From NCBI GenBank assembly GCA_965223325.1, contig CBDCWI010000002.1, positions 1 to 64,000 of the forward strand: a stretch of DNA of 64,000 bases, read 5' to 3'. The notes under the pieces were generated by a model. It worked only from the letters and a program-made list of their open reading frames with translations, did not search any database and was not told the DNA's origin. Shown in pieces: positions 10,244 to 43,413 of this stretch (its first letter is position 1; the number at the start of each line of letters is the position of its first letter). Origin of the DNA: Candidatus Multivoradales bacterium (GTDB taxonomy: Bacteria > Acidobacteriota > Thermoanaerobaculia > Multivoradales > Multivoraceae). A program made the translations under genes and the position numbers.

Positions 10244-10263
10244 TCTTAGTCATATGACTAAGA
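10244..10263. promoter_or_regulatory. Perfect 20-bp palindrome centred on the repressor start codon
   Basis: TCTTAGTCAT|ATGACTAAGA. Confidence 0.65.
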
Positions 10264-12945: not shown

Positions 12946-12976
12946 TGCTGGTCGTTTTTCGTATATTGGTGGAGCG

Positions 12977-13432
12977 ATGGCACGTGGACGCAAGCCCAAA
13001 CCGACCGGCCTGAAGCTCGTCCAGGGCAACGCAGGCCGACGACCTCTGCCGGCGAACGAGCTCAAGCCGGCCCCATCGGTCCCCGACCCCCCAAAGTGGC
13101 TTTCGAAGGCGGCGCTAGCGGAGTGGAAGCGCCTCGCCGAGCCGCTGGCGATGCTCGGGTGCCTGTCGGACCTCGACCTAGCGAACTTCGCCGCCTACTG
13201 TTCGAGCTACGCCGCCTACCAACAGGCCGAAAGGGACTTTCGGGCCGCTGAACAGTGGGGACTGGAGGAGCGCCGAGAGGCTCGGCTCGTCCTGGGAGCC
13301 GCCGAACGCGCCCTCCGCAGCTTTTCGTCGGAATTCGGACTCACGCCAGTCGCTCGACTGAGGCTGGCGATGCAAACTGGCGACGAGGAATCGGACGGCC
13401 TGGACGAGTTCCTCAGTGGCAGCGCGACGTAA
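12977..13432 (+). CDS. Terminase small subunit, P27 family
   Basis: GRKPKPTGLKLVQGNAGRR, PPKWLS..A..EW, EFGLTPVAR. Confidence 0.93.
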   Translation: MARGRKPKPTGLKLVQGNAGRRPLPANELKPAPSVPDPPKWLSKAALAEWKRLAEPLAMLGCLSDLDLANFAAYCSSYAAYQQAERDFRAAEQWGLEERREARLVLGAAERALRSFSSEFGLTPVARLRLAMQTGDEESDGLDEFLSGSAT

Positions 13433-20085: not shown

Positions 20086-20316
20086 ATGGAAGTAACCGTG
20101 CGCATGTTGACCAACCATGCCGGGGCCGATGGCTCCTACAAGCGTGGTGACCTGGCCACTTTCGCGGCGGCCGAGTGTAAGGCGAAGGCCGAAGCGGGCC
20201 GCGTTGAGTTCCAGTCCGAAGAAGACCGGGCGAAGGTCATGGGCAAGGGCGCGTCGAGCGCCGGCGCCCCGCCCGCCAAGTCGACGACGAAGAAGGCAGC
20301 AAGCAAGAAGGGGTAG
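20086..20316 (+). CDS. Small virion-associated protein
   Basis: VRMLT...YKRGD...AGRV with a Lys-rich tail; resembles 33264-33470. Confidence 0.55.
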   Translation: MEVTVRMLTNHAGADGSYKRGDLATFAAAECKAKAEAGRVEFQSEEDRAKVMGKGASSAGAPPAKSTTKKAASKKG

Positions 20317-21879: not shown

Positions 21880-21900
21880 AGCCCCGAAGGACTCACCGAT

Positions 21901-23520
21901 ATGGCCAAGATCGTCGACCCAGATCAGCTCAACCAAGCGACCGAAGTCGTGTTCACCACGACCGGGTCGCCCAAGACGTTCCAATTGCTCGTTGCCGGCA
22001 ACCTGGACGACAACGCGCCCGGACAAACGTCTGGTGTCGCATTCCAGGCGTTCTACTCGTTCTGCAAGGAGGAGTGGCTGACCGACACGGCGCTGAACAA
22101 GCATCGGTTCCCGATCGACCCGATTTTTGAGGCGAAGTTCAACGTCGTGAACGACTGGGAGCCTGCGGACGCCCAGACCCGCGACCTGCTTCGAGATGGT
22201 GGCTGGCGCGAGGACACCTCCGGCGCCGAGTACGCAGTCATCATCTCCCTCGGTGGCTTCGACAACTCGTCGACGGACCAGGCCTACTATCAGCAGGTCT
22301 CGGGCTTCTCGGCGACGACCACGGACTTCGACAAGACCGGCGAACTCAACGAGGCGATCGAGATCTTCGACGGCTCGGCGACGGACAACCGAGACTTTCT
22401 GAAGGTCTATCTGCGCGAGCAGGGGAAGACCATCAGCGAGGGCAACCTGCTCGTTGACCAGGATCTCTCGGTCCTGACGTACCAGGCCTATCGTCTGCCG
22501 CTGTCGAACTCGACCGACCCGAAGATTGTCGAGACCGACGCAAACATCGACGCGAACACCCCCTATACGGGGATGACGATCAACTACCTCGACGGCTCAG
22601 GGTTTACCACCTGGGCGAACTCGACGGTCTATCCGGCCGGCGCGGTAGTGCTCGATGCTGGGCGCCAGGCGTCGGGGTCGTCTAACGGCACCTGGTGGTT
22701 CACGCCGGCCGGCGGCACCTCGAGCGGCACGGGTACATCCGACGACACCGGCGTGACGGACTGGGAGTCCTACGCCGGCGAGCGACAGATCGGTACCGAG
22801 TGGTACGCGTTCAACCGGATTATCGATGGTAACTCCGGCTCAGCCGAAGAGATCTACGAGTTCGAGCGTCGTGAACTGCGTCGGACGACGGACATCAACG
22901 ACGACACCCTGGGCAGCCCAAACCAAGACGGCGTGGGCACCATCAACGGCAACATTGCAGTCCCGTTTCTCGACTTTCTGGGCGAGACCCTGCAGACGCG
23001 CGCCGGTGTGTACGTCGACGATTTCGACGTCAACGACCAGAACCGGATCGAGTTCTTCGACATCACCGTTGACAGTGGCGGCTTGGACTCCGAAGGAACG
23101 CCGTCGACGTCGACAAAGCGCGTGTTCCCGTTCGTTGCTGCCGGCAACCTGGTCTTCTCGAGCAACCTCGTCAGCGAGACCAACGCCGACACGCTCTACC
23201 GGATGTACTTCACCAACGATGACGCGGGGTCGAACGCCGGATCGGACTTCGACACCGACAACGCAATCGTCGTCAACGACAACGCCGCCGCAGCAATCGA
23301 AGGACAGGTGACGGCGACCTCGATTCCGTTCACCTACGACTACGACGGCAACGTGCAGCGGGGTGGCGGTAGCGCCGCGACGGACGTGCCGGTCACGGTC
23401 GTCGCCCAGGGGCTCAGTGACTCCAAGTGGGTCGTCGCCTCGTTCACCATCACTCGCGCGACAGGGTTGACATTCCAGATCAACGCCGGCGACGAGCTCG
23501 TCTACCAGAACCCGGTCTGA
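21901..23520 (+). CDS. Acidic putative virion protein
   Basis: MAKIVDPD...FYSFCKEEW; CBM-like WANSTVYPAG insert; ends GDELVYQNPV. Confidence 0.6.
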   Translation: MAKIVDPDQLNQATEVVFTTTGSPKTFQLLVAGNLDDNAPGQTSGVAFQAFYSFCKEEWLTDTALNKHRFPIDPIFEAKFNVVNDWEPADAQTRDLLRDGGWREDTSGAEYAVIISLGGFDNSSTDQAYYQQVSGFSATTTDFDKTGELNEAIEIFDGSATDNRDFLKVYLREQGKTISEGNLLVDQDLSVLTYQAYRLPLSNSTDPKIVETDANIDANTPYTGMTINYLDGSGFTTWANSTVYPAGAVVLDAGRQASGSSNGTWWFTPAGGTSSGTGTSDDTGVTDWESYAGERQIGTEWYAFNRIIDGNSGSAEEIYEFERRELRRTTDINDDTLGSPNQDGVGTINGNIAVPFLDFLGETLQTRAGVYVDDFDVNDQNRIEFFDITVDSGGLDSEGTPSTSTKRVFPFVAAGNLVFSSNLVSETNADTLYRMYFTNDDAGSNAGSDFDTDNAIVVNDNAAAAIEGQVTATSIPFTYDYDGNVQRGGGSAATDVPVTVVAQGLSDSKWVVASFTITRATGLTFQINAGDELVYQNPV

Positions 23521-23900
23521 TGCCGATACTTCGCTACACGAAGGTCGAGATCGAGGAGCGCCGGCGGTTGCTTGCGCCCGACGCCCGCCGCGAGTTTCGG
23601 ACGACTCGATACTGGATGTTTCGGCTCCAGAACGAGGCAGCCGGAGGTTGCACGGCAGATGGTGTGCCAAAGGAGCTTGTCGATCGCTACGAGGCGACGC
23701 CCGGCTTCGCTGGCTGGCCTGAGTTCGCGAAGTCCTGGGACATCGACCCACTCAGTCCGACCACGATCATCCTCCGCGAGAAGAGCGTTTGGGATGAGCA
23801 CGACGAAGAAATCCTGAAGTCGGTGCCCATCTTGCCCGCGATGGTCGAGAAGAAGGTCAAGAAGAAGGCCAAGAAGAAGAAGTCCAAGGGGGCGAAGTAA
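23520..23900 (+). CDS. Hypothetical protein with Lys-rich C-terminus
   Basis: TGATG coupling to the upstream gene. Confidence 0.55.
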   Translation: MPILRYTKVEIEERRRLLAPDARREFRTTRYWMFRLQNEAAGGCTADGVPKELVDRYEATPGFAGWPEFAKSWDIDPLSPTTIILREKSVWDEHDEEILKSVPILPAMVEKKVKKKAKKKKSKGAK

Positions 23901-23904
23901 GTGA

Positions 23905-24471
23905 ATGGGCGCGGTCGCCACCTACGACGCTGTGAACAAGCTGATCACGCTGACCGCTGCGCCGGTCGGCGGGTTTGTCACGGTCGACGTACAGAAGGAT
24001 CTCTACTCGGCAGCCAAGAACGATTGGCTGTCCGATCCGGTCTTGAACCGCTTCACCTTTCCTTGGAGGACGGTCGGCGGGGACGACGTGGGCGGCGGCA
24101 AGGCGGTCGGCGCGTACTTCTTTCTCCGCAACGATCTCGGGTGGCGCATTCGGCCCTACGACGCGGATCACGAGCTGATCTTGGTTGGACAACTGTTCGG
24201 CCAGGACGGCACGCAACAGGTAGTCGTTCCGACGTCGAGCTCGCACCAGGTACTCGTCCAGGCGGAGAGGTCCTTGCTTACGCAATCGATTCAGGCCGGG
24301 TCCGGGCTCGACACTTCGCAATCGAACCAGCTTCGCGAGGTTTGGAAGCTGCTCGGGCTTGACGTGGCCGATGGGGTCCTCAGAACCGACACCCGTACCC
24401 GCACCGAGTCCAGCGACATCGTGATCGACCACGCAGACGACGGAACAACGACCAGTACCAACAGACAATGA
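23905..24471 (+). CDS. Putative virion protein resembling the N-terminus of 21901-23520
   Basis: LYSAAKNDWLSDPVLNRFTFP vs FYSFCKEEWLTDTALNKHRFP. Confidence 0.6.
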   Translation: MGAVATYDAVNKLITLTAAPVGGFVTVDVQKDLYSAAKNDWLSDPVLNRFTFPWRTVGGDDVGGGKAVGAYFFLRNDLGWRIRPYDADHELILVGQLFGQDGTQQVVVPTSSSHQVLVQAERSLLTQSIQAGSGLDTSQSNQLREVWKLLGLDVADGVLRTDTRTRTESSDIVIDHADDGTTTSTNRQ

Positions 24472-24695
24472 CCCTCGACCGATACACCCAGACCCATCTC
24501 GGAATCCGGACGCGCCCGTGTGATTGCGTTGCGGCCGGCAGCACGATTGTGGCGCCTTCGCTCAAGCGCGCAGACCTGCCCGAGGTTGACCTGGTGGCGC
24601 TGCCCGTCAAGGTGCGTCGGCGCGGCCGGGTTGCAGGAGCGGCGGCTACTGGTGGTCGTAGCGTCGCGGCGGCGCTGGGAAGGCGGGCGGCGTGA
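24468..24695 (+). CDS. Hypothetical protein
   Basis: Overlaps both neighbours by 4 nt. Confidence 0.45.
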   Translation: MTLDRYTQTHLGIRTRPCDCVAAGSTIVAPSLKRADLPEVDLVALPVKVRRRGRVAGAAATGGRSVAAALGRRAA

Positions 24696-25939
24696 GCGCT
24701 CTTTGTCTAGACCCCAAGGACCCGAGCGAAACCAAGTGGTACATCGTTCGATTTGGCGCCCAGGACTGGGCCGCTGGATCGTTTGTCGTGGGGGACGTCC
24801 GGCGAGACCCTGTCGGGGACCTCTACTACGAGTGTGTTCTCGGCCACAGTTCGAGCGGGTCGGTGATCGGTGACGACGCGGCGAACTGGCGGCAGATCGA
24901 CCGGTTCGAGCTCGACGATTCGGTCGGTGAGGACATCGCAAGCGCGACCGTCGAAACCTCTGGCCTGACCCTTGTTTCCGACGAACTGTTCGAAGGTGCG
25001 AAGGCTGTCCGGTTCTTCGTCGCCGGTGGCGAGGACGGTGTCGACTACACGGTAACGGTTCGCATCACGTCGGACCTCGCGCCAACACCGCAAATTCTCG
25101 AAGAGAGCGTGATCATCCCGGTTCGGGACTCGACCTCTCCCGCGACGACGATCACAGCGCCCACGGTCCAGCTCGAGGTGGCCATCCCAGCGAGTAGCAC
25201 AGACCTTCTGACGCTCGATGCGGTCAAGGCGCGATTGAGCATGACTGATGACGACGCGGTGATTCTCGACTACATCGCCGAGGTGAGCAGCGCGATCGAG
25301 GACGAGGCCGGCTGTCTACTTCGTCAAGGCTACCGAGAGGTTCCGGACGGACACGGCAAGTCGACGCTTCTGTTGTCGCGGCACCCGATTGAGCTCGGGA
25401 CGATTCGGGTCTGGATTGCCGGCGAGGAGGTCTTTGATTGGCAGGTCGATTCTGACGAGTACGCCATGCTCTACCGCGACAGTTGTTGGCCGCGTGGCTC
25501 CGGTTGGAACTCTGAGGGCGTCCCACGCATCCTGGTCGAGTACACCGCGGGCTACGTGCTCCCCTCGGCGGTCGTCAAGTGGAGTGCGGGCGAAAGCGTA
25601 GCGGTGGGGCAGTGGGTCAAGGCCACACAAACGCGGTATCTGCTCGAGGTAACCAGTGCCGGCGTGCTCGGCGCGAACGAGCCTGTCTGGCCGACCGAAT
25701 CAGGTGCTTCTGTCACCGACAACACGGCGACGCTGGTCACGCGTGAGGCCCAGATCCTGCCGCGCCAGGTTCTTACCGCGGCCTACATGACGATGGCTGC
25801 GATTCGCGATGAGAGCCGGGCGCTCGGCCTCGTGTCGCAGAAAGCCGACGGCTTCGAGGAGCGCTATGGCGCGGACCTCGGCCTCATTCCGCCGGCTGCC
25901 ATGCGCCTCCTCGATTCCCTGCGGAGGTACGCGGTATGA
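24692..25939 (+). CDS. Fibre-adaptor-like domain fused to a head-tail connector (gp6-like)
   Basis: KDPSE...GGEDGVDYTVTVRIT adaptor; LLTLDAVKARL, VEYTAGY, IPPAAMRLLDSLRR connector motifs. Confidence 0.7.
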   Translation: MSALCLDPKDPSETKWYIVRFGAQDWAAGSFVVGDVRRDPVGDLYYECVLGHSSSGSVIGDDAANWRQIDRFELDDSVGEDIASATVETSGLTLVSDELFEGAKAVRFFVAGGEDGVDYTVTVRITSDLAPTPQILEESVIIPVRDSTSPATTITAPTVQLEVAIPASSTDLLTLDAVKARLSMTDDDAVILDYIAEVSSAIEDEAGCLLRQGYREVPDGHGKSTLLLSRHPIELGTIRVWIAGEEVFDWQVDSDEYAMLYRDSCWPRGSGWNSEGVPRILVEYTAGYVLPSAVVKWSAGESVAVGQWVKATQTRYLLEVTSAGVLGANEPVWPTESGASVTDNTATLVTREAQILPRQVLTAAYMTMAAIRDESRALGLVSQKADGFEERYGADLGLIPPAAMRLLDSLRRYAV

Positions 25940-26511: not shown

Positions 26512-26885
26512 GGGTAGGAGGACGCTTTACTAGCTTCGATGCCGCCGGTCGTGCTTTTCGGCGTCAGGTGCCCTCGATGATCAGAGCTCTTCGCGTCGAC
26601 ACGGCAACCCACGTCGACAGGGAGCTCGACGCGCTCGCGTCCAGGTCGCCGAAACGAACCGGTGAGTTGGCCAGTGGGTGGCGCAAGGTCCGCTCTGGCG
26701 ACCGGACGCGCTACCTCAACACCGTCGACCACGCTTCGATCATTGAGGGTGGCCGTCGTCAGGGAACGCGGGGAGTGCTCGGTTCCCTCCAAGCGCCCCG
26801 GGGAATCGCCGGTCCGATCATCGAGAAGCTGGCGCGCAACTCGACGCGCTTTCTCCGCGGTCTTGTTCGGAGGCGTGGCGGATGA
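26508..26885 (+). CDS. HK97 gp10-like tail-completion protein
   Basis: SPKRTGELASGW...NTVDHASIIEGG...SLQAPRGI. Confidence 0.75.
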   Translation: MRVGGRFTSFDAAGRAFRRQVPSMIRALRVDTATHVDRELDALASRSPKRTGELASGWRKVRSGDRTRYLNTVDHASIIEGGRRQGTRGVLGSLQAPRGIAGPIIEKLARNSTRFLRGLVRRRGG

Positions 26886-27316
26886 ACTACGTAGAAGAGC
26901 GCGAGGCGATCGGCGAGGTTTTCTCATCCTGGGCACCGCCCGGCGCCCTGGTCGTGTTCTCGCCAAACCAGAAGTTTTCGCCACCCACACCGAACGGCTC
27001 GATCAACGCTCCGGCGGTCTATTTGACGTGGGACGTCGAGTACCTGTTTTCGGAGCATCTCACGTTCGAGTGTGTCCGGATCGAGGGCGAGGTGTCGGCG
27101 ATCGTGCATGTCGAGCACGGCGCTCGAGATGGCCGGGCCCGGGAACTCTTTGACGCTCTCGTCCAGGCCTTCCACTCGGCAAAGCCAGCCGGCGAAATGG
27201 GCTTCTCGGTTCCTCTGCCCGGCCAGAGAGTCAAGGACGAGGAGTTCGACCGCCGCGATCTGCGTATTCCGTTCGACCGATTCACGGACTCCTCAGACCC
27301 GGCGCTGGTCGCATAG
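26882..27316 (+). CDS. Tail terminator-like protein
   Basis: PNQKFSPP motif, ~144 aa, position after the gp10-like gene. Confidence 0.6.
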   Translation: MNYVEEREAIGEVFSSWAPPGALVVFSPNQKFSPPTPNGSINAPAVYLTWDVEYLFSEHLTFECVRIEGEVSAIVHVEHGARDGRARELFDALVQAFHSAKPAGEMGFSVPLPGQRVKDEEFDRRDLRIPFDRFTDSSDPALVA

Positions 27317-27324
27317 GACGCAAC

Positions 27325-29058
27325 ATGAAGAGAATCATCACCATCGCAGTACTTGCCGGGACCCTCGCGTTGCCCGCCTACGCACAGCGGATCTCCCAGT
27401 TGCCGGCGGCGGGCTCGGCCTCTGGCTCCGATGAGCTGCCCTCCAACCAGGGCGGCACGACGCGCAAGCTCACCGTTACGCAGATCCTGGCGCTGATCAG
27501 CGACTCGAACGTTCCCGACAATCTGACGATCTCGAGCTCGTCGAATCTCGAAACCGCGGGCTGCCTCCAGATCGGGAGCCTGACCTCGAGCTCTGCCACT
27601 TGCATCTGCGACGACGCAGACCGAGCGTACGCCGACAAGGACTGCGACGGCACCAAGGACGCCGGCGAGGAGTACCTCGACGCGTCGGGTGGTGGCTCGT
27701 CTGACTCGTTCGTGACGCAGGACACGCCGAGCGGCACCGATCCGGTGGCAGATTCGGCGACCGACGTCCTCCAGTGGCTCGCCGGGCAGGACATCACGAT
27801 CACAGGCAACTCGACAAACGACTCGATCACCATTGCGTTCGACGGCAATCTGACCGCCGGAACCACGCTCGACGGCGCCACGATCCAAACCGGCACGGAC
27901 GGCATGAACGACCTGTCTGACATGTCGACGTCGGGCTGCGACAGTGGCGAGGTTGTGGAGTACAACGGAAGCTCGTTCGTCTGCGCTACGGACAACACGG
28001 GCGGCGGTTCCGCGAACTCGTTTGAGACCCACTCGACGCCCTCGGGCACGTCACCGGTTGCGAGCTCGGCCACCGACACGTTGACCTGGTCCGCCGGCCA
28101 GGACATCACGATCACCGGCACCGCGGGTACCGACACGATTGCGATCGCACTCGACGGAGACCTGACCGGAGGAACCACCCTGGGCGGCGCAGCAATCCAG
28201 ACCGGCACGGACGACGACCAGCCGGACTCAGACGGTGAGGTGCCAGACGACATCACAGTCGCCTCGAGTGCGAACCTCGCCACGGCCGGGAGGGTGCAGC
28301 TCGGGAGCCTGACGGTAGGTTCTGCGTCCTGCGTCACGATCGACTCAGACCGGCCATATGCCGACAAGGACTGCGACGGCACCAAGGACGCCGGCGAGGA
28401 GTACCTCGACGCGTCGGGTGGCGGTGGCGGCGCGGACAGCGTTGGGACCTCGGAGCTTGACGACGGGACGGATACGCCGCTGGCCGGTGAGTACGTCCGG
28501 GTTGATCCGCTCGACACCACGCAGTTCCAGTACCGCACCTCGGCCGAGGTCCGTGGAGACATCGGGGCAGCCTCGACGACCGATCTCATCGACGCCGGCG
28601 CCACGGTGACGGCGGCCGATGACCAGATCATGATCGGTGACGGCAGCGAGTTCGATGGCGAAGCGATTCCGAACGGGGTCCTTTACTACGACGCCGCGAA
28701 CAACGACGTCGAGGAGCACGAGACCTGCGACAGCACGACGATTCAGTCGATGCAGGCCGCCGACGATGATCTTCTGATCCTTGGCCCGTTCCCCTATGCG
28801 GTGACGGTCGAGCAGGTGGGCTGCCGCTACGAGGGCACGGGCACAACCGTCGGCCAGGTGAGTCTCGAGGACACCGGCGGCAATGCGATGACGCACACAG
28901 TCCCGACCTGCACGACGGGCGGAACCGCCGCGACGTTTCAGTCAATCAGCGCCGGCGGCGGCCTGACTGCTGGCGAGGGGCTTCGCCTGGACGTCGACAA
29001 CACGCCCGACCCAACCACCGATGACTACATCATCACCGTCTGCTGGACGAGGGATTGA
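27325..29058 (+). CDS. Fibre-like repeat protein with Sec signal peptide
   Basis: MKRIITIAVLAGTLALPAYA|QRISQLPAA; two pairs of internal repeats; 12 Cys. Confidence 0.7.
   Translation: MKRIITIAVLAGTLALPAYAQRISQLPAAGSASGSDELPSNQGGTTRKLTVTQILALISDSNVPDNLTISSSSNLETAGCLQIGSLTSSSATCICDDADRAYADKDCDGTKDAGEEYLDASGGGSSDSFVTQDTPSGTDPVADSATDVLQWLAGQDITITGNSTNDSITIAFDGNLTAGTTLDGATIQTGTDGMNDLSDMSTSGCDSGEVVEYNGSSFVCATDNTGGGSANSFETHSTPSGTSPVASSATDTLTWSAGQDITITGTAGTDTIAIALDGDLTGGTTLGGAAIQTGTDDDQPDSDGEVPDDITVASSANLATAGRVQLGSLTVGSASCVTIDSDRPYADKDCDGTKDAGEEYLDASGGGGGADSVGTSELDDGTDTPLAGEYVRVDPLDTTQFQYRTSAEVRGDIGAASTTDLIDAGATVTAADDQIMIGDGSEFDGEAIPNGVLYYDAANNDVEEHETCDSTTIQSMQAADDDLLILGPFPYAVTVEQVGCRYEGTGTTVGQVSLEDTGGNAMTHTVPTCTTGGTAATFQSISAGGGLTAGEGLRLDVDNTPDPTTDDYIITVCWTRD
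27631..28421 (+). repeat. Exact 62-nt in-frame direct repeat (27631-27692 and 28360-28421)
   Basis: Both copies encode ADKDCDGTKDAGEEYLDASG; 729 nt apart. Confidence 0.95.
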
Positions 29059-29062
29059 GCCC

Positions 29063-29905
29063 ATGCGCCTCGCTCTAGTCGCACTCACTATCGTCCTCGC
29101 GGCGCAGTCGGTGGCCGCTGGCAACCTGATCAGGCGCTCGTTGCCGCCCGACGAGACTGCGTCGATGACCGGGTACTGGTCGCTCGATGAGTCGAGCGGA
29201 GACAGGGACCTGACCGCGGGCACGGCCGGCACCGATTGTGATCTGACGCAGGAGGGCACCGTTTCGTCCGAGGCGGGCATCCTGGGCAACGCTGCTTCGT
29301 TCCCCGACACGAATTCTGATCGGTTCGTCGCGACAGACGCGACGTGTGACGAGGTCGATGCGACCGACGAGGACGTCGTGGTCTGCACGTACTTCCGGAT
29401 GGACTCGACGACCACGTCTGGTGGCTACATCATCGAAAACCGAAACGGGTCCGGTGGCTGGGACTTCTGGTACTCGAACTACTGCGCGAACTACGCGATC
29501 GATTTCGAGGTTCACGACGGAACGACCGTGTTTCGCAACACCGACTTCCCGTCGAACGAGTGCGACAACTGGGTCGCGATGTGCGGGCGATGGGATGACT
29601 CCGCGGGCACCGTCGACATCATGTTGAACGGCACCGTCGACACGCTGAGCCCTGCGAGTCCTGGTGTCGTAGACGGGACCCAGGATCTCCGGTTCGGAAA
29701 CGGATTGAAGGGTGAGCTTGACGAGGCGTGGATCGATATCTCGACCGGTGGTGCACTGACCGATACCGAGCTCCGGAAGATGCAGGCGTGCGGCCCGACA
29801 GGTGAGCTATGCCGCTGCCGCGGCGACGTCTACGTTGACCGCGGCTTCTACGACGACGAATCGATCAGCGGCGACCTAGGAGACTGCGATGCGACTGTCT
29901 TCTAG
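29063..29905 (+). CDS. LamG/ConA-like protein with Sec signal peptide
   Basis: MRLALVALTIVLAAQSVAA; GYWSLDESSG, GILGNAASF, GELDEAWI; 10 Cys. Confidence 0.75.
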   Translation: MRLALVALTIVLAAQSVAAGNLIRRSLPPDETASMTGYWSLDESSGDRDLTAGTAGTDCDLTQEGTVSSEAGILGNAASFPDTNSDRFVATDATCDEVDATDEDVVVCTYFRMDSTTTSGGYIIENRNGSGGWDFWYSNYCANYAIDFEVHDGTTVFRNTDFPSNECDNWVAMCGRWDDSAGTVDIMLNGTVDTLSPASPGVVDGTQDLRFGNGLKGELDEAWIDISTGGALTDTELRKMQACGPTGELCRCRGDVYVDRGFYDDESISGDLGDCDATVF

Positions 29906-32900
29906 CGCTCTCCTGATTCTGTTCACCCTTGGGGTGAACGGTTTCGCTGCGGCCGAGCTCGGCGACCACAAGGGTCGCGGCTACGAGGCGCGGGTTTGTG
30001 GTCTTGACCTGGACGACGACGGCATCGTGGGCGAAGCCTCTGACTGCGACGTCTGCGACTCGACCTCGGGCTCGAGCATGGTTGCGGTCGACTGGGACGG
30101 CGACAGCACGACAGAGTCCGAGGTCTACGTCGACATGACGTCGGGTGCCGATAGTGGGTCTTGCGGCACACCAGATTCTCCGTGCGCGACTCTCGCGTAC
30201 GCCATCGACAACCGCTCGGGCCTGGCCGCCGGCGAAGACGCCTACTGCGTCAAGGGAACGGGCGGCACCGGCGACGACCTGATTGATGACATCCCGAGCG
30301 GCGACGCCGGGACCAGGTGGGACCAGTCTGGCGACGAGGCTTTCCCGGTCGCGGTTCCGACAAACCCGACCCTGATCGTTGCCTGGGACGACGACAACGA
30401 CGGCAACTATCACGAGGACATGCCGATCTTCGACGGCACAGACGACGAGGTCTTCCTCTGGGAGACCGGCGTGTCACGAGTCGAGCTCGCGCATCTACGC
30501 TTCGACAACATCACCGATCCGATCTGGTCGCCCAGCGGTGTGACCTCCGGCGAGCGGGACTCCTGGTACCTGCACGACCTCGAGGTCAACGACATCGCAT
30601 CCTTCCAGCTTTTCAACGTCTTCGGGTGCCAGAACGGAAACAGTGGTGACGACCTGCTCTTTCGCAACATTCTGGTCGATGGCCAGGCGGTCACCGAAGA
30701 CAACTTCTTCTATGCGATGCGCGGAGAGTGTGACGGGACCGGTTTCACTCGCCGCACGAGGTGGAGGTTCGACAACTACACCTATCGCGATGTCATCGCG
30801 GCCGGCGGCGGGGATGCAACCCACGTCCTTTTCGACGTCTGGGGCAGCGTCGACCACGTCGAGTTTCGCGACATCCGCATTGAGGGGACGAGCGACGGGC
30901 ACGCCCTCGACATGCCCAACTTCGGGAGCCCGGCCCAGTGCATCCAGGACGTATGGGTAACAAACGTCTTCTGCGACCAGTGCGGGAGCTTCGTGGTCGA
31001 GAGTGCCGATAACACCTTCTGCGACGTCGACGAGATCACCGGCCCCGTCATCGTTGATCGCCTCGAGTGGTACGGGGACGACGACCACACCGGATTCGGC
31101 GACGTGATCTTCGTCACGATCGACAACGTCGGTGACGGCGACTCGCGAATCGAGAACTTCACCCTTCGCAACAGCACGATGGTCGACGGGGACTCGGCGC
31201 AACGCAACTGCGTCCGTTTGGACGTGGGCCAGAACACCGAGGCCTACACCGCCGGCGCAGAGTTCGTGTTCGACGGCAACACCTTCGTCGGTTGTATCAA
31301 CGGGATCTACGTCGAGAACGAGGGCTCAGCGACGCACGTGCTCCAGAAAGTCACGATTCGCGGCAACGCCTTCTACGACAACGGCGACAACATCGACGAC
31401 CGCACCGGCGGGTCGAACTGGACGATCGAGGACAACAGCTACGACGCCGGAAACTGGCGATGGAACTCGACGGAGTACTCAACGGGCGCCTTCGCGACTT
31501 GGGAAACGGCCTCGGGCGATACGGGAAGCGACCTCTGCACACCGGTTTTTGAGGATTCGGCCGGCGATGACTGGCGACCCGCTCTGCACGACACCTGCAT
31601 CCTGGGCGCCCGCACGTCGGCGCTCACGAGTGCCATTGACCGCGCCAACAAGCAGCGCGGAGACGATCCCTCGCGGGGCGGTCTCGAGCGGGACACGATG
31701 TACCCGAGTCATCTGCGGGCGGCTGTGGCAGCTCAGTACGATGATGATCGAGGGCCCACCGACTCGCCGACCATCCCCGGCGGTGCAACTGTCATCGATT
31801 GCGATGCGGCCGGCGATCCCTCGGTCACGATCACCAGCAGCGGCGATTACGAGATCCGCGGTACCTGCCGACCCGCCGGCGTGATCGACCCCGGCGCCGG
31901 AACCACAAACATCGTGTGCGAGGACAGCACGACTCTGATCCTCGGGAGCAACGACATTTCGCCGGCGACCGTCGCCTGGACGTCTGACACGGGCGACTGG
32001 TACGTGACCGGCCAAACGCAGGACTCGACCGACTACACCCAGGGGTGTCAGAGCGGGTGGACGAACTGCGAGGAGTCGGAGGCGGTCTATCTCGACGGGG
32101 TCCACCTGACTCCGGTCACGAGTAAGGCCAACCTCGACCAGGACGACGAGTTCTACTTCGACTACGCCGCCGACCGCATTTACTTGAACTTCGATCCCGA
32201 GCTCAACCAGGACCTGGTCATCGAGGCGACGTCCGAAGAGAAGGCCTTCGATCTGTCCGACAGTACAGAGGCGAACCCGCACACGGTTCGAAACTGCACG
32301 GTCAAGTTCTTCAACGCGTCGGCCGAACCTCCGGTCGAGACGAACAACGTGATCGACATGGGCGCCGGCGCGATCTTCGAGTACTCGTACCTCGGCCAAA
32401 GCGGCGGCGTCGGAATCATGATGGACGGCGACGGCTCGACAGTCCAGCACTCGATCATCGAGGACATCGGCCGGCTCGGTATCGGTGGCAACAACGACGA
32501 CCTGACGGTCGAGAACGTGGCGATCAGGCGGGTCAACCGCGACAAGGGGCATTCCTACGTCTGGGAGGCCGGCTGCACCAAGTTCGCAACCGGCAACGTC
32601 GACAACCTGCTGCTCGCCAACAGCACCGCCGAGGACTGTCTCGGACCCGGCTGGTGGACCGATATCGACGTGGGCGATGCCGTTGATTCAAGCATCGTGT
32701 TCCGAGACCTCTGGGCGTCAGGCAATCAGGAAGGCGTCCGCCACGAGATCGCGTTCGCCGCCACGATCGAGCGCGTCATCGCGATGCGAAACGAGGATGC
32801 CCAGATCGCCGTGGCGAACAGCGAAGACACGATCGTCCGCGACTCCTGGATACAGAACACGATTGTCGACTCGCCCGGGGTCAACAGCGGCCTGAGTCTT

Positions 32901-33263
32901 GGCAACGACTGCCGCACTTCGCCGGCGAACTACTACACCCGCGACGTCACGGTCGAGAACAACATCTTCGTCTCTGAGGGCGATAACGACGGGTGCTGGT
33001 CTTGCGGATACGTGGTGTCGATGCAGGTAAGCCCGACGACAACGTCCGGCTGCCCGCTGAACCTCGATTCGACGCTGGCCAACTGGTTCAACGGAACGAA
33101 GAACCCCACGAAGATCGACAACAACCGGTACGTGCTGCTCGGCGAGGAAGCGTTCGTGGGGCAGAGCGGCTCAGACGGCCGCGCGGAAATCAACTGGTCG
33201 AGCTGGCAGGGGCTGGGGCTCGACACCAACAGCGAAAAGGTCACAACCCGAGGAGGCAACTAG
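29889..33263 (+). CDS. Large acidic right-handed beta-helix protein (two solenoid regions) with Sec signal peptide
   Basis: MRLSSSALLILFTLGVNGFA; VYVD...GADSGSCGTPDSPCATLAYAI; TIRGNAFYDN and TVENNIF repeats; DxDxDG motifs. Confidence 0.75.
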   Translation: MRLSSSALLILFTLGVNGFAAAELGDHKGRGYEARVCGLDLDDDGIVGEASDCDVCDSTSGSSMVAVDWDGDSTTESEVYVDMTSGADSGSCGTPDSPCATLAYAIDNRSGLAAGEDAYCVKGTGGTGDDLIDDIPSGDAGTRWDQSGDEAFPVAVPTNPTLIVAWDDDNDGNYHEDMPIFDGTDDEVFLWETGVSRVELAHLRFDNITDPIWSPSGVTSGERDSWYLHDLEVNDIASFQLFNVFGCQNGNSGDDLLFRNILVDGQAVTEDNFFYAMRGECDGTGFTRRTRWRFDNYTYRDVIAAGGGDATHVLFDVWGSVDHVEFRDIRIEGTSDGHALDMPNFGSPAQCIQDVWVTNVFCDQCGSFVVESADNTFCDVDEITGPVIVDRLEWYGDDDHTGFGDVIFVTIDNVGDGDSRIENFTLRNSTMVDGDSAQRNCVRLDVGQNTEAYTAGAEFVFDGNTFVGCINGIYVENEGSATHVLQKVTIRGNAFYDNGDNIDDRTGGSNWTIEDNSYDAGNWRWNSTEYSTGAFATWETASGDTGSDLCTPVFEDSAGDDWRPALHDTCILGARTSALTSAIDRANKQRGDDPSRGGLERDTMYPSHLRAAVAAQYDDDRGPTDSPTIPGGATVIDCDAAGDPSVTITSSGDYEIRGTCRPAGVIDPGAGTTNIVCEDSTTLILGSNDISPATVAWTSDTGDWYVTGQTQDSTDYTQGCQSGWTNCEESEAVYLDGVHLTPVTSKANLDQDDEFYFDYAADRIYLNFDPELNQDLVIEATSEEKAFDLSDSTEANPHTVRNCTVKFFNASAEPPVETNNVIDMGAGAIFEYSYLGQSGGVGIMMDGDGSTVQHSIIEDIGRLGIGGNNDDLTVENVAIRRVNRDKGHSYVWEAGCTKFATGNVDNLLLANSTAEDCLGPGWWTDIDVGDAVDSSIVFRDLWASGNQEGVRHEIAFAATIERVIAMRNEDAQIAVANSEDTIVRDSWIQNTIVDSPGVNSGLSLGNDCRTSPANYYTRDVTVENNIFVSEGDNDGCWSCGYVVSMQVSPTTTSGCPLNLDSTLANWFNGTKNPTKIDNNRYVLLGEEAFVGQSGSDGRAEINWSSWQGLGLDTNSEKVTTRGGN

Positions 33264-33470
33264 ATGCTGGTCGAGATTGAGATGTTGACAACAGAGGGCA
33301 AGTACAAGAAGGGCCAGGCCTACGAGGTGGACGCCCAGCGCGCGGCCGCGTGGGAAGCCGCCGGCGTGGCGCAACGCCCAGGAGCTAAACCAGAGCGCCG
33401 CTCAAGTGGCCTCAAAACACGAAGGCCCGCGGGCGCGGAGCCATCACCAACTGACGACCAGGAGGTCTAG
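33264..33470 (+). CDS. Small virion-associated protein
   Basis: EMLT...YKKGQAYEV...AAAWEAAGVA. Confidence 0.55.
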   Translation: MLVEIEMLTTEGKYKKGQAYEVDAQRAAAWEAAGVAQRPGAKPERRSSGLKTRRPAGAEPSPTDDQEV

Positions 33471-33473: not shown

Positions 33474-34208
33474 ATGGCAGGCGAGAAAAGAGTGGTGGTT
33501 CGAAACGCCACAGTGATCTACGAAGAGTTCAACTACGCGCCATTCGCAAACGACGTGTCGATTGATCTGTCACAGCAGGACATCGACGCTTCGAACTTCG
33601 AGAGCCCTGGGGGCTTCGAAGACACGTTACCCGGCAACAAGAGCGCGACGTTCACCGTCAGCGGATTCGCAATGTCTGGCGACCTCGAGCGGGCACTGTG
33701 GACCCGCGAGGACGATGTCCTCGTGTCGTTCTCACGTGAGCGGCCGGTCGAGGCAGGCGATCTCGTGTACTTCGCGAAGGCGCGACGCAGTGGCAACCCG
33801 ATCCAGACCCGAGTGGGCCAGATCGCGACGCTGTCCGCGAACTTCAAACCGATCGAGGGCATCGTGCAGGGTTATGGCGCATACAGCAGCCTGGCTATCA
33901 CGGCCAGCGACACCGGCGGCGAGATCAACATCCCCGGCGGCGTGCCTAACGGCTCGACGCTCAAGATGATCGTGCATTGCACGGACGCGTCCGGCACGAC
34001 CCCAACGATGGACATCATCGTGCGCAGCGCTGCGGCGACCGGCATGGGTACGCCGACAACTCGCGGAACGTTCACTCAGATCACAGCGGCGGGAAGCGAG
34101 CTCCTCGAGGTCGATGGCCCGATCACTGACGAGTTCTGGGACGTCGATATCACGGTGGCCGGTACGACACCCAGTTTCGGCGTGATGGTTGCGATCGGCG
34201 TCATCTAG
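33474..34208 (+). CDS. Major tail (tube) protein with C-terminal beta-sandwich
   Basis: IDASNF...EDTLPGNKSATFTVSG; directly precedes the chaperone and TMP. Confidence 0.75.
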   Translation: MAGEKRVVVRNATVIYEEFNYAPFANDVSIDLSQQDIDASNFESPGGFEDTLPGNKSATFTVSGFAMSGDLERALWTREDDVLVSFSRERPVEAGDLVYFAKARRSGNPIQTRVGQIATLSANFKPIEGIVQGYGAYSSLAITASDTGGEINIPGGVPNGSTLKMIVHCTDASGTTPTMDIIVRSAAATGMGTPTTRGTFTQITAAGSELLEVDGPITDEFWDVDITVAGTTPSFGVMVAIGVI

Positions 34209-39255: not shown

Positions 39256-42200
39256 ATGGGCGTTTACCTCCTCGAGCTCGAGGTCTACAACCTCGAAACC
39301 GACAGCCTGGAACAGCTCTATCTCGCGACCGATCCCTGGGTCTCGCGACCGACGGATACGCCGGCGAATCAGCCGTACGCTGCACGGCTCGAGCGGCCGC
39401 CGAAGATCTCCCGGAGCCTTTACTCGCCAGGAACGATCGGCGGCCGGTCTGTGGCTAGTGCCGGCGAAGCGTGGATCAGCAATCTCGACGGGGAGATGGA
39501 CTTCCTCGAGCGCTGTGCGGTCGACAGCCGCAGCGTGAGGCTGCTTTACCACCCGACGGGCAAAGCTGCCCGAGACGAGTTCTCGACGGTCTTCGTCTCG
39601 ACGATGGACGATGTTCTCCCGGGCCACGACCGAATCGTGCTGATGATCCGAAGCCCACAGTTCCGGCTCGACGAGTCGCCGGCTGCACCAGACTTCTTTC
39701 TGCCTCATCACACTGCGGCGGTTTTCGGTACGGAAGCGAAGACCGCCCAGGCGCCGAGCGTTGCCTCGCCTTACAACCTCGCCAACTACACCGTTGAGTT
39801 TCGGTTTCGAATGCAGCCCGGGGCCGCTTGGGGGGCCCTCGTGTCCTTCGGCCGGGACGACACCAACCCGAACGGCCAGGCCTCGGTGCGCATCGGGAAC
39901 AGCAGCTGGGGCGGCGGTGCTCAGATCAATATCAACGGGACCAGCGCCACCTACAGCGGCCGCAGCTACCTAGATGGCATGGCACATCACGCAGCTCTAC
40001 GCCGGCGTGGAGACGACTACGAACTGCTGATCGATGGCGAGATGGTTTGCGAAGCGACGGTTTCAACGACCACGGTCACGAACAACTACTACACGATCGG
40101 CGCGCGCAAGACCGCAACCGGCCTGCGGGAGCACCCGGAAGCGGAGATCTGGGAGGTGCGCACTTGGGACCACGGCCGTACTGACGAGCAGCTCCTGTCT
40201 CTGCGAGAGGCTCGGCTCGAGGGAACCGAGGAGGGTTTGCGGTCCTATTGGCGCTTGGACGAAGGCGTCGACGTGACGACGGGCCTGGTCGCCACGGATT
40301 CGAACTGGTACGACCCATCGAACAACTCGAATGGCATCTTCTTCGACTCTGGCCCCAACAAGCACCACGGCATCTTCGTGACGGACGGTGAGTGGTCGTC
40401 CACAGGCGAGGGGCCTGGCGGCGTCCGCAAGCCTCTCCCCGTCGGCCACGTCTTCAACCTGGAACCGAGCCTTCTCGACGCCCGGGCTCAGCGCTACGCG
40501 GTGTCGGACGGCCCGGTGCGTCATGTAGAGGTGACGGAGGGCGGGCGCGTCCTGATCGACCAGCCTCGAATCGATTTCGACGGGACCGCCACCAAGGTGA
40601 CCATCTCTGGTTCGTCCGACTACGCGTTCACGGTCTCTGACGAGTTCACCGTCGAGACGCTCTTCCAGATCGACGATCCAGACTGGGCCGCCGGCGACAT
40701 CGTCAACCTGCTGGACCAGCCGGGCACCGGGAGTGCCAACGGCTGGTATCTGCGCGCGATCAAGGCTTCCACCGGAAAGTTCCGGGTGTTTGGGGTGGCC
40801 ACAACAGGCGATGGCTCCGGAGGCCTCACCGTCTGGTCGAACACCCTCTTGAGTTCGGGCCGCCGATACCGGATTTCCTTTGCGGTCAACGCGGCCGAGG
40901 ACAGGGGCGCGCTCTACCTGAACGGAAGGCTGGAGAACACCGCCGAACCGGTCGACCCGGCCTGGACAGGCGGTTTCGGTCTCTCCACCACCGACATCCT
41001 CGTCGGTGTCGAGGCCGGCGGGAGTCCTGACTACTTTCCCGGCAAGATCTGGGATCTGCGTCTCTGGGAGACGGAACGCGAGCCCGACGAGATCGAGTCC
41101 TGGGCGTTCCGACCGATCCGCTCGGCCCCAGCCTCACTGGTGGGCTACTGGAGGATGAACGAGGGCACCGGAACGACCGCCGGCGACCTAGCAGCCGGCG
41201 CCAACGACGGCACAATCACCTCGGGCACTTGGGTTGACGCGCAGGTTGCGATTGATCGCGTTCGCGGCCTCTTCGACCTCAGCTTTGCACCGACCGCGCC
41301 GATCCGCGCGAACGTCGAGGGCTGGATGCCGTTCGGACCATCGGTAGCCCTGGACGGTAGCACTGGTCGGGTCAAGTTGGTCGCGGCAGAGATACCGGCG
41401 GGCTCGTTCACGGTGGCTGGCTGGTTTCGGTCGGATCGATCGGCCGGCGATGCTGGTTCGAATCAAACGATGATCTATCGGTGGGACGCGAACGCGGGCG
41501 CCTTCCAGCTACGACTGTCGGACCAGTCCGGACCGCTGGAGAACTCGCTCGAGCTTGCCCTTCAAACCTCAACCGGAAGCCACACCGTTTCGACCTCCGC
41601 ACTCGAGTTCGAGGTTGGCCGCTGGCACCACGCTGCCGCCGTCTTCGACGAGACCGCCGGCGAGGCTCGGCTGTACCTGGACGGCCGGCTCGGTCACTCC
41701 GAGAGTGTCACCGGTACGCGCCCAGCACATACGCGTCTGATCAACATCGGGTCCGGGTCCTCCTCGAACCACGTCCTGGGCGCCGTGTCGGACGTCTTGA
41801 TTGCGACACGTGCGATGGACGCCGACGAAATCGCAGCGCTTCCGTACACGCGCCCGGCACCGGACGACTCGGCGCTTTACCGGTGGCTTCCGATGAATGA
41901 AGACACGGGGACCACCACGCACGACCTGAGCACCAACCTGGACTCGGGCACCCTTGACGGGGGTGCGGTCTGGGACGATGGTGTGTTCCCCGAGACGCCT
42001 GGCGAAGCGATTCGGTGGCTGGTGGCAAGCCGTGCGGCGCTCTTGGCTACCGAAGTCGATCTCGAGTCGCTACGCGACTACGACGCCCTGCTGTCATCCC
42101 CTCGAATCGGCTGGCTCGCAGAAGACAGCTCGGTCTCGGCAGTTCTCGACGACCTACTCCGGCCCGCCGGCTTCTTTGGATTCGGCCCGAACGGCGAACT

Positions 42201-43413
42201 CGAGCTCGGCAGGCTCACCGCACCGGATGTCTACCGCGAACTCCGACTCCATTCGGGAGGCTACGCCGGCGCGTCCGCCTACGCAGAAGTGCAGTACGGG
42301 CAGTTCACTGCGGGCAGTCAGAGCCGCAGGATCACCGCGGAGCTTTGGGCCGAGCGACTCGGCGAGGGCAGCACGACCGAGGAAACGCTTTTCGAAGTGA
42401 CGGCGAACTACGCGATCTACTTCGACAACGCCGACGGGCAGCTGCACGTCAAGGAATGGAACGGCGACTTCCCAGGTGACCTGGTCGACTGGACTGACTC
42501 AGGGTGGAAGCTTGATCCCGGAAACCGACGACACATTGCGCTGGTGCTCGGCGGTTCCGAGCCGATTCTGTACCTGGACGGCTCGCCGGCGTCATCCGGT
42601 ACCAGCTCAACGACGGCCGAGAGCGGCAGCCATGTTGCTCAGTCCATTGAGGTTGGCAGGGGAGGGAACGTACGCGTCTCTGAAGTGAGGGTCTGGTCGC
42701 GGGCTCGCACACCGAGCGAGATTGCTTCGAGCCGTTTCGCGCGCCTCGACGGCGAAACCGATCACCTGGTCGGCTACTGGCGAATGGACCAGGCGGAAGG
42801 TACGACAGTGCCGAACCTTGCATCGTCTCGCCACGTTACCGCCGGCGAGGATCTTCTCCTGTTTGGGTCCTCGTCCTGGGATCTCGTGGCCCGGCACAGC
42901 GAGCCATTGACTCCCGACTCCACCGAGATCGTGCCGGGTATCCATTCGAGGGTCGTGCCGATGCCTGCCGAGGTGCCACGCCAGGGCGTGGTCGTGAAGT
43001 ACCGAAAGAACTGGTCTCCGATGAGCCGGGACGACCTCCTGGGGCTGGTCACCGAGTCGCCGGCCGACGTAGAGCGCTACACCCGCGCCAGCTCTCTGGC
43101 GCGGCGCGACGTCGCGAACGACGTCACCGAGCGACACCCTTCTGCACCAGGAGCGCTGACGCTCGAGACGGCGCTTGTCGACGCGGCGGACGCCCAGGCC
43201 GCCGCGAATCTCGAGGCCGCGAACTTCGGTGTTCGCCGGCGACCGTGGAACCTTCTGTTGCACGAGGGAGCCAGTCTCGGACTGCGCGCCGGCGACGAGA
43301 TTCTGGTCAAGAGTCGCCGCGAGACTTTCGGAGTGATGGGGAAGGGTCTGGTAGTTCTAGACGACCGGCTTGATCCGTCGCGAGACGTTCTCGAACTGGT
43401 GGCGTGGGGGTAG
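39256..43413 (+). CDS. Tail tip protein with about four LamG domains
   Basis: FTVE/FTVAGWF, HHAA, LYLDG, EVRVWS, LVGYWRM patterns recur four times within a tail scaffold. Confidence 0.8.
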   Translation: MGVYLLELEVYNLETDSLEQLYLATDPWVSRPTDTPANQPYAARLERPPKISRSLYSPGTIGGRSVASAGEAWISNLDGEMDFLERCAVDSRSVRLLYHPTGKAARDEFSTVFVSTMDDVLPGHDRIVLMIRSPQFRLDESPAAPDFFLPHHTAAVFGTEAKTAQAPSVASPYNLANYTVEFRFRMQPGAAWGALVSFGRDDTNPNGQASVRIGNSSWGGGAQININGTSATYSGRSYLDGMAHHAALRRRGDDYELLIDGEMVCEATVSTTTVTNNYYTIGARKTATGLREHPEAEIWEVRTWDHGRTDEQLLSLREARLEGTEEGLRSYWRLDEGVDVTTGLVATDSNWYDPSNNSNGIFFDSGPNKHHGIFVTDGEWSSTGEGPGGVRKPLPVGHVFNLEPSLLDARAQRYAVSDGPVRHVEVTEGGRVLIDQPRIDFDGTATKVTISGSSDYAFTVSDEFTVETLFQIDDPDWAAGDIVNLLDQPGTGSANGWYLRAIKASTGKFRVFGVATTGDGSGGLTVWSNTLLSSGRRYRISFAVNAAEDRGALYLNGRLENTAEPVDPAWTGGFGLSTTDILVGVEAGGSPDYFPGKIWDLRLWETEREPDEIESWAFRPIRSAPASLVGYWRMNEGTGTTAGDLAAGANDGTITSGTWVDAQVAIDRVRGLFDLSFAPTAPIRANVEGWMPFGPSVALDGSTGRVKLVAAEIPAGSFTVAGWFRSDRSAGDAGSNQTMIYRWDANAGAFQLRLSDQSGPLENSLELALQTSTGSHTVSTSALEFEVGRWHHAAAVFDETAGEARLYLDGRLGHSESVTGTRPAHTRLINIGSGSSSNHVLGAVSDVLIATRAMDADEIAALPYTRPAPDDSALYRWLPMNEDTGTTTHDLSTNLDSGTLDGGAVWDDGVFPETPGEAIRWLVASRAALLATEVDLESLRDYDALLSSPRIGWLAEDSSVSAVLDDLLRPAGFFGFGPNGELELGRLTAPDVYRELRLHSGGYAGASAYAEVQYGQFTAGSQSRRITAELWAERLGEGSTTEETLFEVTANYAIYFDNADGQLHVKEWNGDFPGDLVDWTDSGWKLDPGNRRHIALVLGGSEPILYLDGSPASSGTSSTTAESGSHVAQSIEVGRGGNVRVSEVRVWSRARTPSEIASSRFARLDGETDHLVGYWRMDQAEGTTVPNLASSRHVTAGEDLLLFGSSSWDLVARHSEPLTPDSTEIVPGIHSRVVPMPAEVPRQGVVVKYRKNWSPMSRDDLLGLVTESPADVERYTRASSLARRDVANDVTERHPSAPGALTLETALVDAADAQAAANLEAANFGVRRRPWNLLLHEGASLGLRAGDEILVKSRRETFGVMGKGLVVLDDRLDPSRDVLELVAWG

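Follow-up and report, generated by a model that had tools for sequence, protein, structure and literature searches.

Results

Location of the three-gene cassette

A siphovirus-like temperate phage has its late region at ~12.9–46 kb of the window analysed here, which spans the first 64 kb of C2, one of the two contigs (C1 and C2) into which the genome of a Candidatus Multivoradales bacterium was assembled. Three open reading frames (ORF1, ORF2 and ORF3) are set between the genes of its tail terminator and its major tail (tube) protein. They are predicted to encode a fibre-like protein, a lectin and a beta-helix protein, each with a Sec-type signal peptide (Table 1). A sequence-only reading of the window had assigned the genes to this place, and the matches of the flanking genes to phrog_179 and phrog_9522 agree with it. 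The spacing it gave is exact by coordinates: 8 nucleotides (nt) lie between the terminator gene and ORF1 and 4 nt between ORF1 and ORF2, ORF2 and ORF3 overlap by 17 nt, and 0 nt lie between ORF3 and the next ORF, which encodes 68 amino acids (aa). A host island in place of a phage was considered and rejected, the flanks being terminase-to-endolysin genes.

As the same reading had held, these gaps leave no room for intergenic promoters or terminators. A consensus scan of 24–36 kb, covering one promoter type, found no sigma-70-like promoter vs. 1.3 expected, and terminator-like hairpins showed no excess (7 vs. 6.3 expected from shuffles). The G+C content at third codon positions (GC3) of the cassette genes (0.78–0.84) is like that of the neighbouring late genes (0.72–0.85). 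Most likely, the three genes are co-transcribed with the tail genes. Both the lack of intergenic room and promoter sites and the inconspicuous base composition count against the alternative that the cassette is lysogenic-conversion cargo (morons), expressed in the uninduced host, whose surface or nutrition would benefit from the adhesin, the lectin and the glycan-degrading enzyme.

Table 1 Features of the cassette and its surroundings (positions in the window)
Feature	Position	Strand	Size	Assignment and remarks
Head-tail adaptor	24692..25939	+		N-terminal Gp77-like domain (PF23148, 29.5 bits vs. cut-off 27); phrog_442
Tail terminator	26882..27316	+		Upstream border of the cassette; phrog_179, E 2.6e-5; 88% identical in the C1 copy
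ORF1	27325..29058	+	577 aa	Exported-type fibre-like protein; 12 Cys; weak match to phrog_677 tail-fibre connector, E 8.8e-6
Predicted ORF1 signal peptide	27325..27384	+	20 codons	MKR, hydrophobic core, AYA/Q
Cys/Ca module, copy 1	27550..27678	+		ORF1 residues ~76–118; contains DKDCDG
Cys/Ca module, copy 2	28282..28410	+		ORF1 residues ~320–362; contains DKDCDG; matches the signal-bearing fibre of L062
ORF2	29063..29905	+	280 aa	Exported-type LamG (concanavalin-like) lectin; 10 Cys
ORF3	29889..33263	+	1124 aa	Exported-type two-domain beta-helix protein; 28 Cys
68-aa ORF	33264..33470	+	68 aa	Between ORF3 and the tube gene; conserved in the C1 copy
Major tail protein	33474..34208	+		Downstream border of the cassette; phrog_9522, E 7.6e-25
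Tail-tip protein	39256..43413	+	1385 aa	Signal-less; four LamG domains (Laminin_G_3, E 1.8e-48); directly after the tape measure

Predicted signal peptides and composition

Signal peptides were called with a strict rule of our own, which asks for a positive n-region, an uncharged h-region of at least nine residues and small residues at −3/−1 (n/h/c pattern) within the first ~35 residues. Three of the 24 late proteins pass, and these are exactly ORF1, ORF2 and ORF3. Cleavage (marked by a slash) is predicted at PAYA/QRIS in ORF1, at SVAA/GNL or nearby in ORF2, where the signal reads MRLALVALTIVLAAQSVAA/G, and at GFA(AA)/E in ORF3. A lipoprotein signal was considered and rejected, there being no cysteine (Cys) at +1.

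The three products contain 12, 10 and 28 Cys, respectively (2.1–3.6% vs. 0–1.5% in the other 21 late proteins), and a signal-less late protein of 539 aa has a single one. Their net charges are −74 (ORF1), −33 (ORF2) and −129 (ORF3), and DxDxDG motifs occur twice each in ORF1 (residues 104 and 347) and ORF3 (residues 40 and 167). The Sec-type N-termini, the acidic and Cys-rich character (12 and 10 Cys against one in the 539-aa protein) and the DxDxDG motifs in the first and third genes had all been claimed from the sequence-only reading and are borne out here, the first of them also by a second copy of the cassette described below. For scale, when a permissive form of the rule is applied to the whole genome (3888 crude gene calls), 896 proteins count as signal-like, and in 40 of the 3886 same-strand adjacent triplets all members do. 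Two DsbA-like proteins with leaders are encoded in the host genome. We consider export of the three proteins via the Sec pathway highly probable and infer that their signals are cleaved and that disulfides form.

A second prophage copy and the alternative of no export

A related prophage is located on the minus strand of contig C1 at ~2,000–60,500 and matches window positions 1–50,264 with 94–96% nucleotide identity. All three cassette genes are intact in it. The ratio of nonsynonymous to synonymous substitution rates (dN/dS) between the copies is 0.14 for ORF1, 0.16 for ORF2 and 0.05 for ORF3, from 97, 110 and 209 synonymous differences, and indicates that the three genes are real and under purifying selection. 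The early region (window 3,932–10,884) is found on both sides of the C1 prophage, as in a tandem or partly duplicated insertion, and each prophage copy is located close to the start of its contig.

In ORF1 and ORF3, no other stretch of 20 residues is conserved as poorly as the predicted signal, and the sequence directly after it is near-identical between the copies. In ORF1, 10 of the first 20 residues are identical, followed by 140 out of 140; in ORF3 the figures are 12 of the first 20 vs. ~19–20 of 20 elsewhere. ORF2 has diverged over its whole length (78% identical) and shares 15 of its first 20 residues. The replaced signal residues retain the charged start, the hydrophobic core and the small residues at −3/−1, and all 50 Cys are conserved, including the ten of ORF2. 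Signal peptides evolve by quick sequence turnover under physicochemical constraint, and the comparison supports the view that the N-terminal segments of ORF1–3 behave like signal peptides. The possibility raised earlier that the signals might not be conserved was thus checked in the C1 copy, where the sequence has diverged and the n/h/c character is retained.

An alternative is that there is no export, the hydrophobic N-termini being uncleaved membrane anchors or the true starts lying downstream, as the sequence-only reading had itself allowed. A TTG codon at 27370, for example, would give a leaderless fibre starting MPAYAQRISQLP; this codon is present in both copies, and it counts for the alternative, too, that the signals were called by a heuristic. 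However, no Shine-Dalgarno-like sequence common to both copies precedes the TTG, which was set aside as a start, whereas the ATG starts follow AGGA (ORF1), GAGGGA (ORF2) and AGGAG (ORF3) at proper distance. The longest frame of ORF2 begins at 29021; the methionine at 29063 was chosen as it follows the GAGGGA and equals the start of the longest ORF in the second copy. The hydrophobic segments are in frame, and their n/h/c pattern is kept despite replacement of 25–50% of the residues. With two further points from the protein families given below, we regard a lack of export as very improbable.

Divergence between the copies is uneven along the late genes. In a comparison that leaves out the capsid and tape-measure genes, synonymous divergence (dS) reaches 0.27–0.95 in the block from terminator to tube, stays at or below 0.15 in the flanking late genes and is ~0.002 from terminase to protease. 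As the terminator-to-tube block is the most diverged of the phage pair, the cassette appears to travel with its neighbours in a wider phage gene pool. Its position in this block, as if exchanged together with the terminator and tube genes, is another point against lysogenic-conversion cargo. In contigs mapped from four DNA runs of one study, the signal region and parts of ORF2 occurred solely as the C1-type variant. A reliable junction of a cassette-less form was not found in them, the joints listed having only 21–24 letters on one side.

Relationships of the three products

ORF1 opens with the signal and a fibre N-terminal motif, which are followed by two Cys/Ca modules, a pair of 'SFxT..PSGTxPVAxSATD' repeats and, at the C-terminus, a beta domain. 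The mature protein would begin QRISQLPAAGSASG..GGTTRKLT. Its residues 2–53 align with the N-terminus (residues 4–40) of the leaderless gp53 of Roseobacter phage CRP-4 (E 2e-4), and only weak matches (E 0.07–0.2) link its start with two Rhizobium phages and with the phiEt88 tail fibre (Erwinia phage). A word-indexed search retrieved 73 proteins including ORF1 itself, which share 5–40% of its length, mostly the repeat SFxT..PSGTxPVAxSATDTL..ITITG and a ~45-residue module; some carry T7-tail-fibre, collagen or Mtd_N Pfam domains. In the Cys/Ca module, a Cys pair and Asp/Gly/Glu columns with a DxDCDGTxDxGEE loop are invariant in all six aligned sequences. Its homology leads us to regard ORF1 as a derivative of a phage fibre.

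ORF1 was found in one of 401 genomes of the phylum, which is its own. It matched no Pfam family, nothing in IMG/VR, nothing in the PDB by sequence and no cultured-phage record at E 1e-5, and the Cys/Ca module matched no cultured-phage record at E 0.1. The nearest ESM-Atlas clusters are all viral (score 0.87, a lead only). Long fibre- or collagen-like viral proteins matched the ORF1 model in BFVD with template-modelling (TM) scores of 0.1–0.16 and very large root-mean-square deviations, and these matches carry no weight.

For ORF2, a Pfam scan of the protein itself gave no family at E <= 0.01, and no close relatives were found besides the C1 copy. A phmmer search returned 429 distant relatives; among 17 that were scanned, 16 match Laminin_G_3 (PF13385), 14 of them above the Pfam cut-off. 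Through these relatives, ORF2 is predicted to be a LamG-type lectin. The same phage also encodes a leaderless LamG protein, the tail-tip protein, and the mutual similarity of the two is weak.

The C-terminal half of ORF3 matches the beta-helix family PF13229 (30.3 bits vs. a gathering score of 25.9; residues 830–985). The family of its N-terminal half occurs in 6 of 41 related genomes and at 30 loci in species genomes, mostly named Acidobacteriota and Thermoanaerobaculia. By the n/h/c rule, 21 of the 30 loci have a signal or lipoprotein leader, often ending directly before the conserved RGYxxR..CGxDxDxDG start. That the conserved domain begins directly after the predicted cleavage site in many members is the first of the two points against a lack of export. 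The host has several paralogues of both ORF3 halves, with signals, and only the LamG tip protein among the 23 other phage proteins of the window matches the ORF3-family loci. ORF3 had no match among cultured-phage records at E 1e-5 and none in the PDB by sequence. Its best Foldseek match is 8bwk (E 1.9e-4, TM 0.18–0.26), and weak fold matches include lyases of polysaccharide lyase family 6 (PL6), chondroitinase B and tailspikes; all of these come from a model with a predicted local distance difference test score (pLDDT) of 46 and are leads only. Because the family sits in ordinary host loci and has host paralogues, ORF3 is taken as a captured host-type secreted protein. The earlier attribution of all three products to phage fibre and receptor-binding domain types is therefore to be divided: it suits the fibre-derived ORF1, but not ORF3, which belongs by descent to a secreted bacterial family.

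These relationships lend themselves to a different view of the cassette, in which the products are exported and never become part of the particle. They would be late helpers, either soluble or bound to the envelope, and act on glycans of the host surface or matrix, which ORF3 would cut and the other two would bind. Progeny might thereby be released from the matrix; or, on the dying cell and on debris from it, receptors might be masked or destroyed, which would prevent the loss of progeny and exclude rivals. The secreted family of ORF3, its host paralogues and its weak fold matches to polysaccharide lyases and tailspikes all favour such a role.

Recurrence in homologues and other phage contigs

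Across the ORF1 and ORF2 families, presence of a signal goes with a higher Cys content. Among the ORF1 homologues, 21 of 72 are signal-like, with a median of 1.82% Cys vs. 0.26% (one-sided Mann–Whitney p 9e-6), and among the ORF2 homologues listed 51 of 149 are, with 1.17% vs. 0.42% (p 4e-5); these p-values overstate the case, related sequences not being independent. Cys counts are even in 25 of 34 signal-like ORF2 homologues vs. 18 of 34 others. This association is the second family-level point against a lack of export.

A metagenome scan yielded ten loci, among them L053, which was examined over 20.7 kb of a 65-kb contig. It holds a P2-like baseplate string with, in this order, genes for a gpV-like hub, a beta-helix protein, a signal-bearing 754-aa fibre, a PAAR protein and gp25-like, gpJ-like and gpI-like proteins. 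The predicted mature start of the 754-aa fibre repeats the ORF1-type motif. A further signal-bearing protein (759 aa, 12 Cys) is encoded directly after the gpI-like gene, which is the fibre-gene position in P2; its sole match among cultured phages covers 42 residues of an annotated tail fibre (E 3e-4), and the gpI-like protein had no match there. The 754-aa fibre gene is flanked by the genes of a leaderless beta-helix protein with 12 Cys (7270–9522) and of the PAAR protein (12622–13011).

In L055, the gene of a signal-bearing 846-aa fibre (28 Cys) precedes that of a signal-bearing Laminin_G_3 protein, and genes for a membrane protein and an NlpC/P60 enzyme come after them; fibre then lectin is also the order of ORF1 and ORF2. 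The fibres of L053 and L055 and the major tail protein had no match in IMG/VR. In L056, the gene of a 2525-aa protein with a portal domain is followed by that of a signal-bearing 1055-aa protein and then by one for a Gp77 fibre-tail adaptor (PF23148, E 2.6e-13). Tail fibres of cultured cyanophages and Flavobacterium phages have a domain in common with the 1055-aa protein (E down to 2e-13). In L062, a 58-kb viral contig found in IMG/VR by scanning with the Cys/Ca module, two signal-bearing genes stand in succession, the first of which encodes a 1092-aa protein (28 Cys) with tail-fibre PHROG domains (E 8.5e-20). Cys-rich fibre homologues with predicted signals thus recur in the tail modules of four uncultured phage contigs (L053, L055, L056 and L062), which answers the question, posed with the sequence-only reading, whether homologues keep both the signal and the position among tail genes.

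The cassette as an accessory insertion

Relatives of the major tail protein were found in 4 of 300 genomes of the order, its own included. In three foreign prophages (L014, L015 and L016), the terminator and tube genes are ~195–210 nt apart, without a cassette, and no signal-like proteins were seen among the coding-looking ORFs of the 20-kb stretches around them. Because terminator and tube genes are adjacent in these three distant relatives, the cassette is accessory and not ancestral. The 68-aa ORF is probably the ancestral small gene of the terminator-tube spacer, where relatives have ~200 nt. It weakly resembles another small ORF (20086–20316) in its start, MxVxxxMLT..G.YK(K/R)G (pairwise E 0.003 over 21 residues), and each of the two directly borders an accessory block.

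The insertion relative to related phages, with nothing at the same place in L014, L015 and L016, is what cargo for lysogenic conversion would also look like, and the host type of ORF3 and the retention of two prophage copies in one genome fit it as well. Moreover, signal-bearing proteins resembling phage fibres act as surface adhesins in Bdellovibrio (PMC10769870). Set against the gene spacing, base composition and shared divergence described above, we nevertheless consider a moron origin unlikely.

Neighbouring genes of the late region

The late region begins with an HNH endonuclease gene, followed by small and large terminase, portal, S49 protease and major capsid protein genes, several genes without assignment, the head-tail adaptor, two small genes and the tail terminator. 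ORF1, ORF2, ORF3, the 68-aa ORF and the major tail protein gene come next, and the region ends with genes for an assembly chaperone, the tape measure, the 1385-aa tip protein, a 503-aa protein, a putative holin and an amidase endolysin. The tip protein contains two Cys and the tape measure none.

The Gp77-like domain of the adaptor lies in an N-terminal extension of ~160 residues. Gp77 is the fibre-tail adaptor of podophage GP4. The domain suggests that fibres dock at the neck of this siphovirus, and it is a candidate docking site.

Between the head genes and the adaptor, at 20323–24471, lie three genes (518, 539 and 188 aa) without signals; neither Pfam nor PHROGs gave a family for their products. 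Distant relatives have only ~1 kb at this place, and the genes may form another accessory set, e.g., head or neck fibres. A small ORF at 23521–23901 has a lysine-rich tail from AAG repeats; depth in the mapped contigs peaks sharply there and loose ends are numerous, for which low-complexity cross-matching is the most likely cause.

Discussion

We propose that ORF1–3 form an accessory late-gene cassette whose products would be made together with the tail proteins. The Sec pathway would carry each product across the inner membrane, its signal peptide would be removed, and the products would fold in the periplasm with disulfides and probably with bound calcium. Lysis by holin and endolysin would then free them. 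Processed ORF1 would start two residues before the motif that opens ordinary phage fibres and could attach to completed particles once lysis has occurred, giving them an additional fibre for host recognition, with the lectin ORF2 and the glycan-active beta-helix protein ORF3 acting either bound to ORF1 or free. Given export, docking on released particles is favoured by the conserved fibre start of ORF1 and by the fibre-slot positions of its counterparts in other contigs. We hold this reading of the cassette, exported products with a fibre added to virions after lysis, tentatively, as one almost as apt to be right as wrong.

Several observations weigh against it. The signals were judged solely by the n/h/c heuristic made for this analysis, at annotated starts, and the AlphaFold models of the ORF1 monomer (pLDDT 59.6) and of ORF3 (pLDDT 46.0) are poor. 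Signal-like host proteins are Cys-poor (median 0.45% vs. 0.88%; at least 2% Cys in 53 of 896), so that the combination of a signal with many Cys is unusual for the host, too, and Pfam models for DsbB and VKOR found no match in the genome, which is 98% complete. Neither ORF2 nor ORF3 has a recognisable docking domain, and ORF3 has no recognisable phage N-terminal adaptor. Among the 108 ORFs nearest the match (of 194 listed in 21 of the 30 loci) that flank ORF3 relatives, there are no head, connector or lysis PHROG matches and one short, weak tail-domain match. Finally, the spacing of terminator and tube genes in the three foreign prophages implies that particles assemble without the cassette. 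The proposal of exported late proteins accompanying the tail is therefore upheld in part: the signal-like N-termini, the conserved Cys and the position in the tail string speak for it, and the host type of ORF3 and the accessory nature of the cassette speak against it.

Some of the same observations favour free helpers that stay outside the particle: ORF3 is of host ancestry, neither it nor ORF2 has a docking segment, and related phages do without the cassette. Llp of phage T5 and Cor of phages phi80 and N15 are exported proteins that are encoded beside receptor-binding genes and block the receptor, and phage depolymerases are also released in free form; both are precedents for such a role. 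However, the fibre N-terminal motif of ORF1 is perfectly conserved, and a helper acting free of the particle would not require it. Lysis frees cytoplasmic enzymes anyway, and a signal would be needed only for folding or for action before lysis. In other contigs, moreover, signal-bearing fibres sit at the fibre positions of baseplate modules. We rate free helpers as possible but rather doubtful.

Extended beyond this locus, the reading in which fibres are added after lysis would mean that some tailed phages of diderm environmental bacteria, the present host being diderm, finish their particles outside the cytoplasm, with fibres that are Sec-exported, disulfide-linked, calcium-loaded and docked at lysis. 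This broader idea is possible, somewhat short of an even chance; under it, the window would be a siphovirus example and ORF1–3 an exchangeable recognition cassette beside the neck and tube genes. A literature search that covered few subscription journals found no account of tailed phages whose tail fibres bear Sec signals, nor did passages from PMC3556154, PMC5723332, PMC12923769 and PMC3517404 give one.

Recurring fibres with Sec signals and Cys pairs in tail modules would point either to a two-compartment assembly route or to a new class of fibre-derived exported late helpers. Either reading would change the prediction of receptor-binding proteins, since pipelines often drop signal-bearing proteins as non-structural. 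It would also call for periplasmic expression or oxidising conditions when such fibres are produced for study, and it would change how host range is deduced from genomes of uncultured soil and sediment phages. With the prophage in two copies and the genome in two contigs, the case is directly testable here.

According to the textbook view, tailed phages assemble wholly in the reducing cytoplasm, and their structural proteins are expected to lack signal peptides. The leaderless fibres of Roseobacter phage CRP-4 (gp53, 'putative fiber protein') and Erwinia phage phiEt88 (gene 83) share with ORF1 the motif I-S-x-L/M..A..S..G....GGTTKK.T and a fibre-like build. In them, however, the motif lies at residues 4–5, without a leader, and Cys is scarce, whereas in ORF1 a 20-residue Sec-type signal precedes the motif and the protein has 12 Cys.

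Exported proteins encoded beside tail-fibre genes are familiar from Lom and Bor of phage lambda, Llp of T5 and Cor of phi80 and N15, which resemble the cassette in being signal-bearing proteins in or beside the tail gene clusters of tailed phages. These are small outer-membrane proteins or lipoproteins that serve exclusion or serum resistance and often have their own promoters; the cassette, in contrast, comprises three large proteins of fibre, lectin and beta-helix type, set gapless in the string of tail genes. With depolymerases and tailspikes of the P22, HK620 and CBA120 type and with two-domain PL6 alginate lyases, ORF3 shares the right-handed beta-helix (PF13229). Unlike those tailspikes, it lacks a phage N-terminal adaptor, has a predicted signal peptide and has host secreted proteins as relatives. 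Like the carbohydrate-active auxiliary genes of soil phages, ORF3 would be a host-derived, glycan-active gene in a phage of a soil or sediment bacterium, but it differs from them in lying inside a tail operon, paired with an exported-type fibre and lectin.

A further parallel is found outside phages. In Bdellovibrio bacteriovorus, mosaic adhesive trimer (MAT) fibres are chromosomally encoded adhesins on the predator's own surface; their N-terminal domain of ~130 aa is conserved, and many have an S74 domain (Caulton et al. 2024, PMC10769870). By that description, MAT fibres are like ORF1 in resembling phage tail fibres and in having a signal peptide, and they work outside the cytoplasm, as is predicted for ORF1. 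What sets ORF1 apart from MAT as described there is its place in a phage tail operon, its phage-fibre N-terminal motif and its lack of a Pfam match, S74 included.

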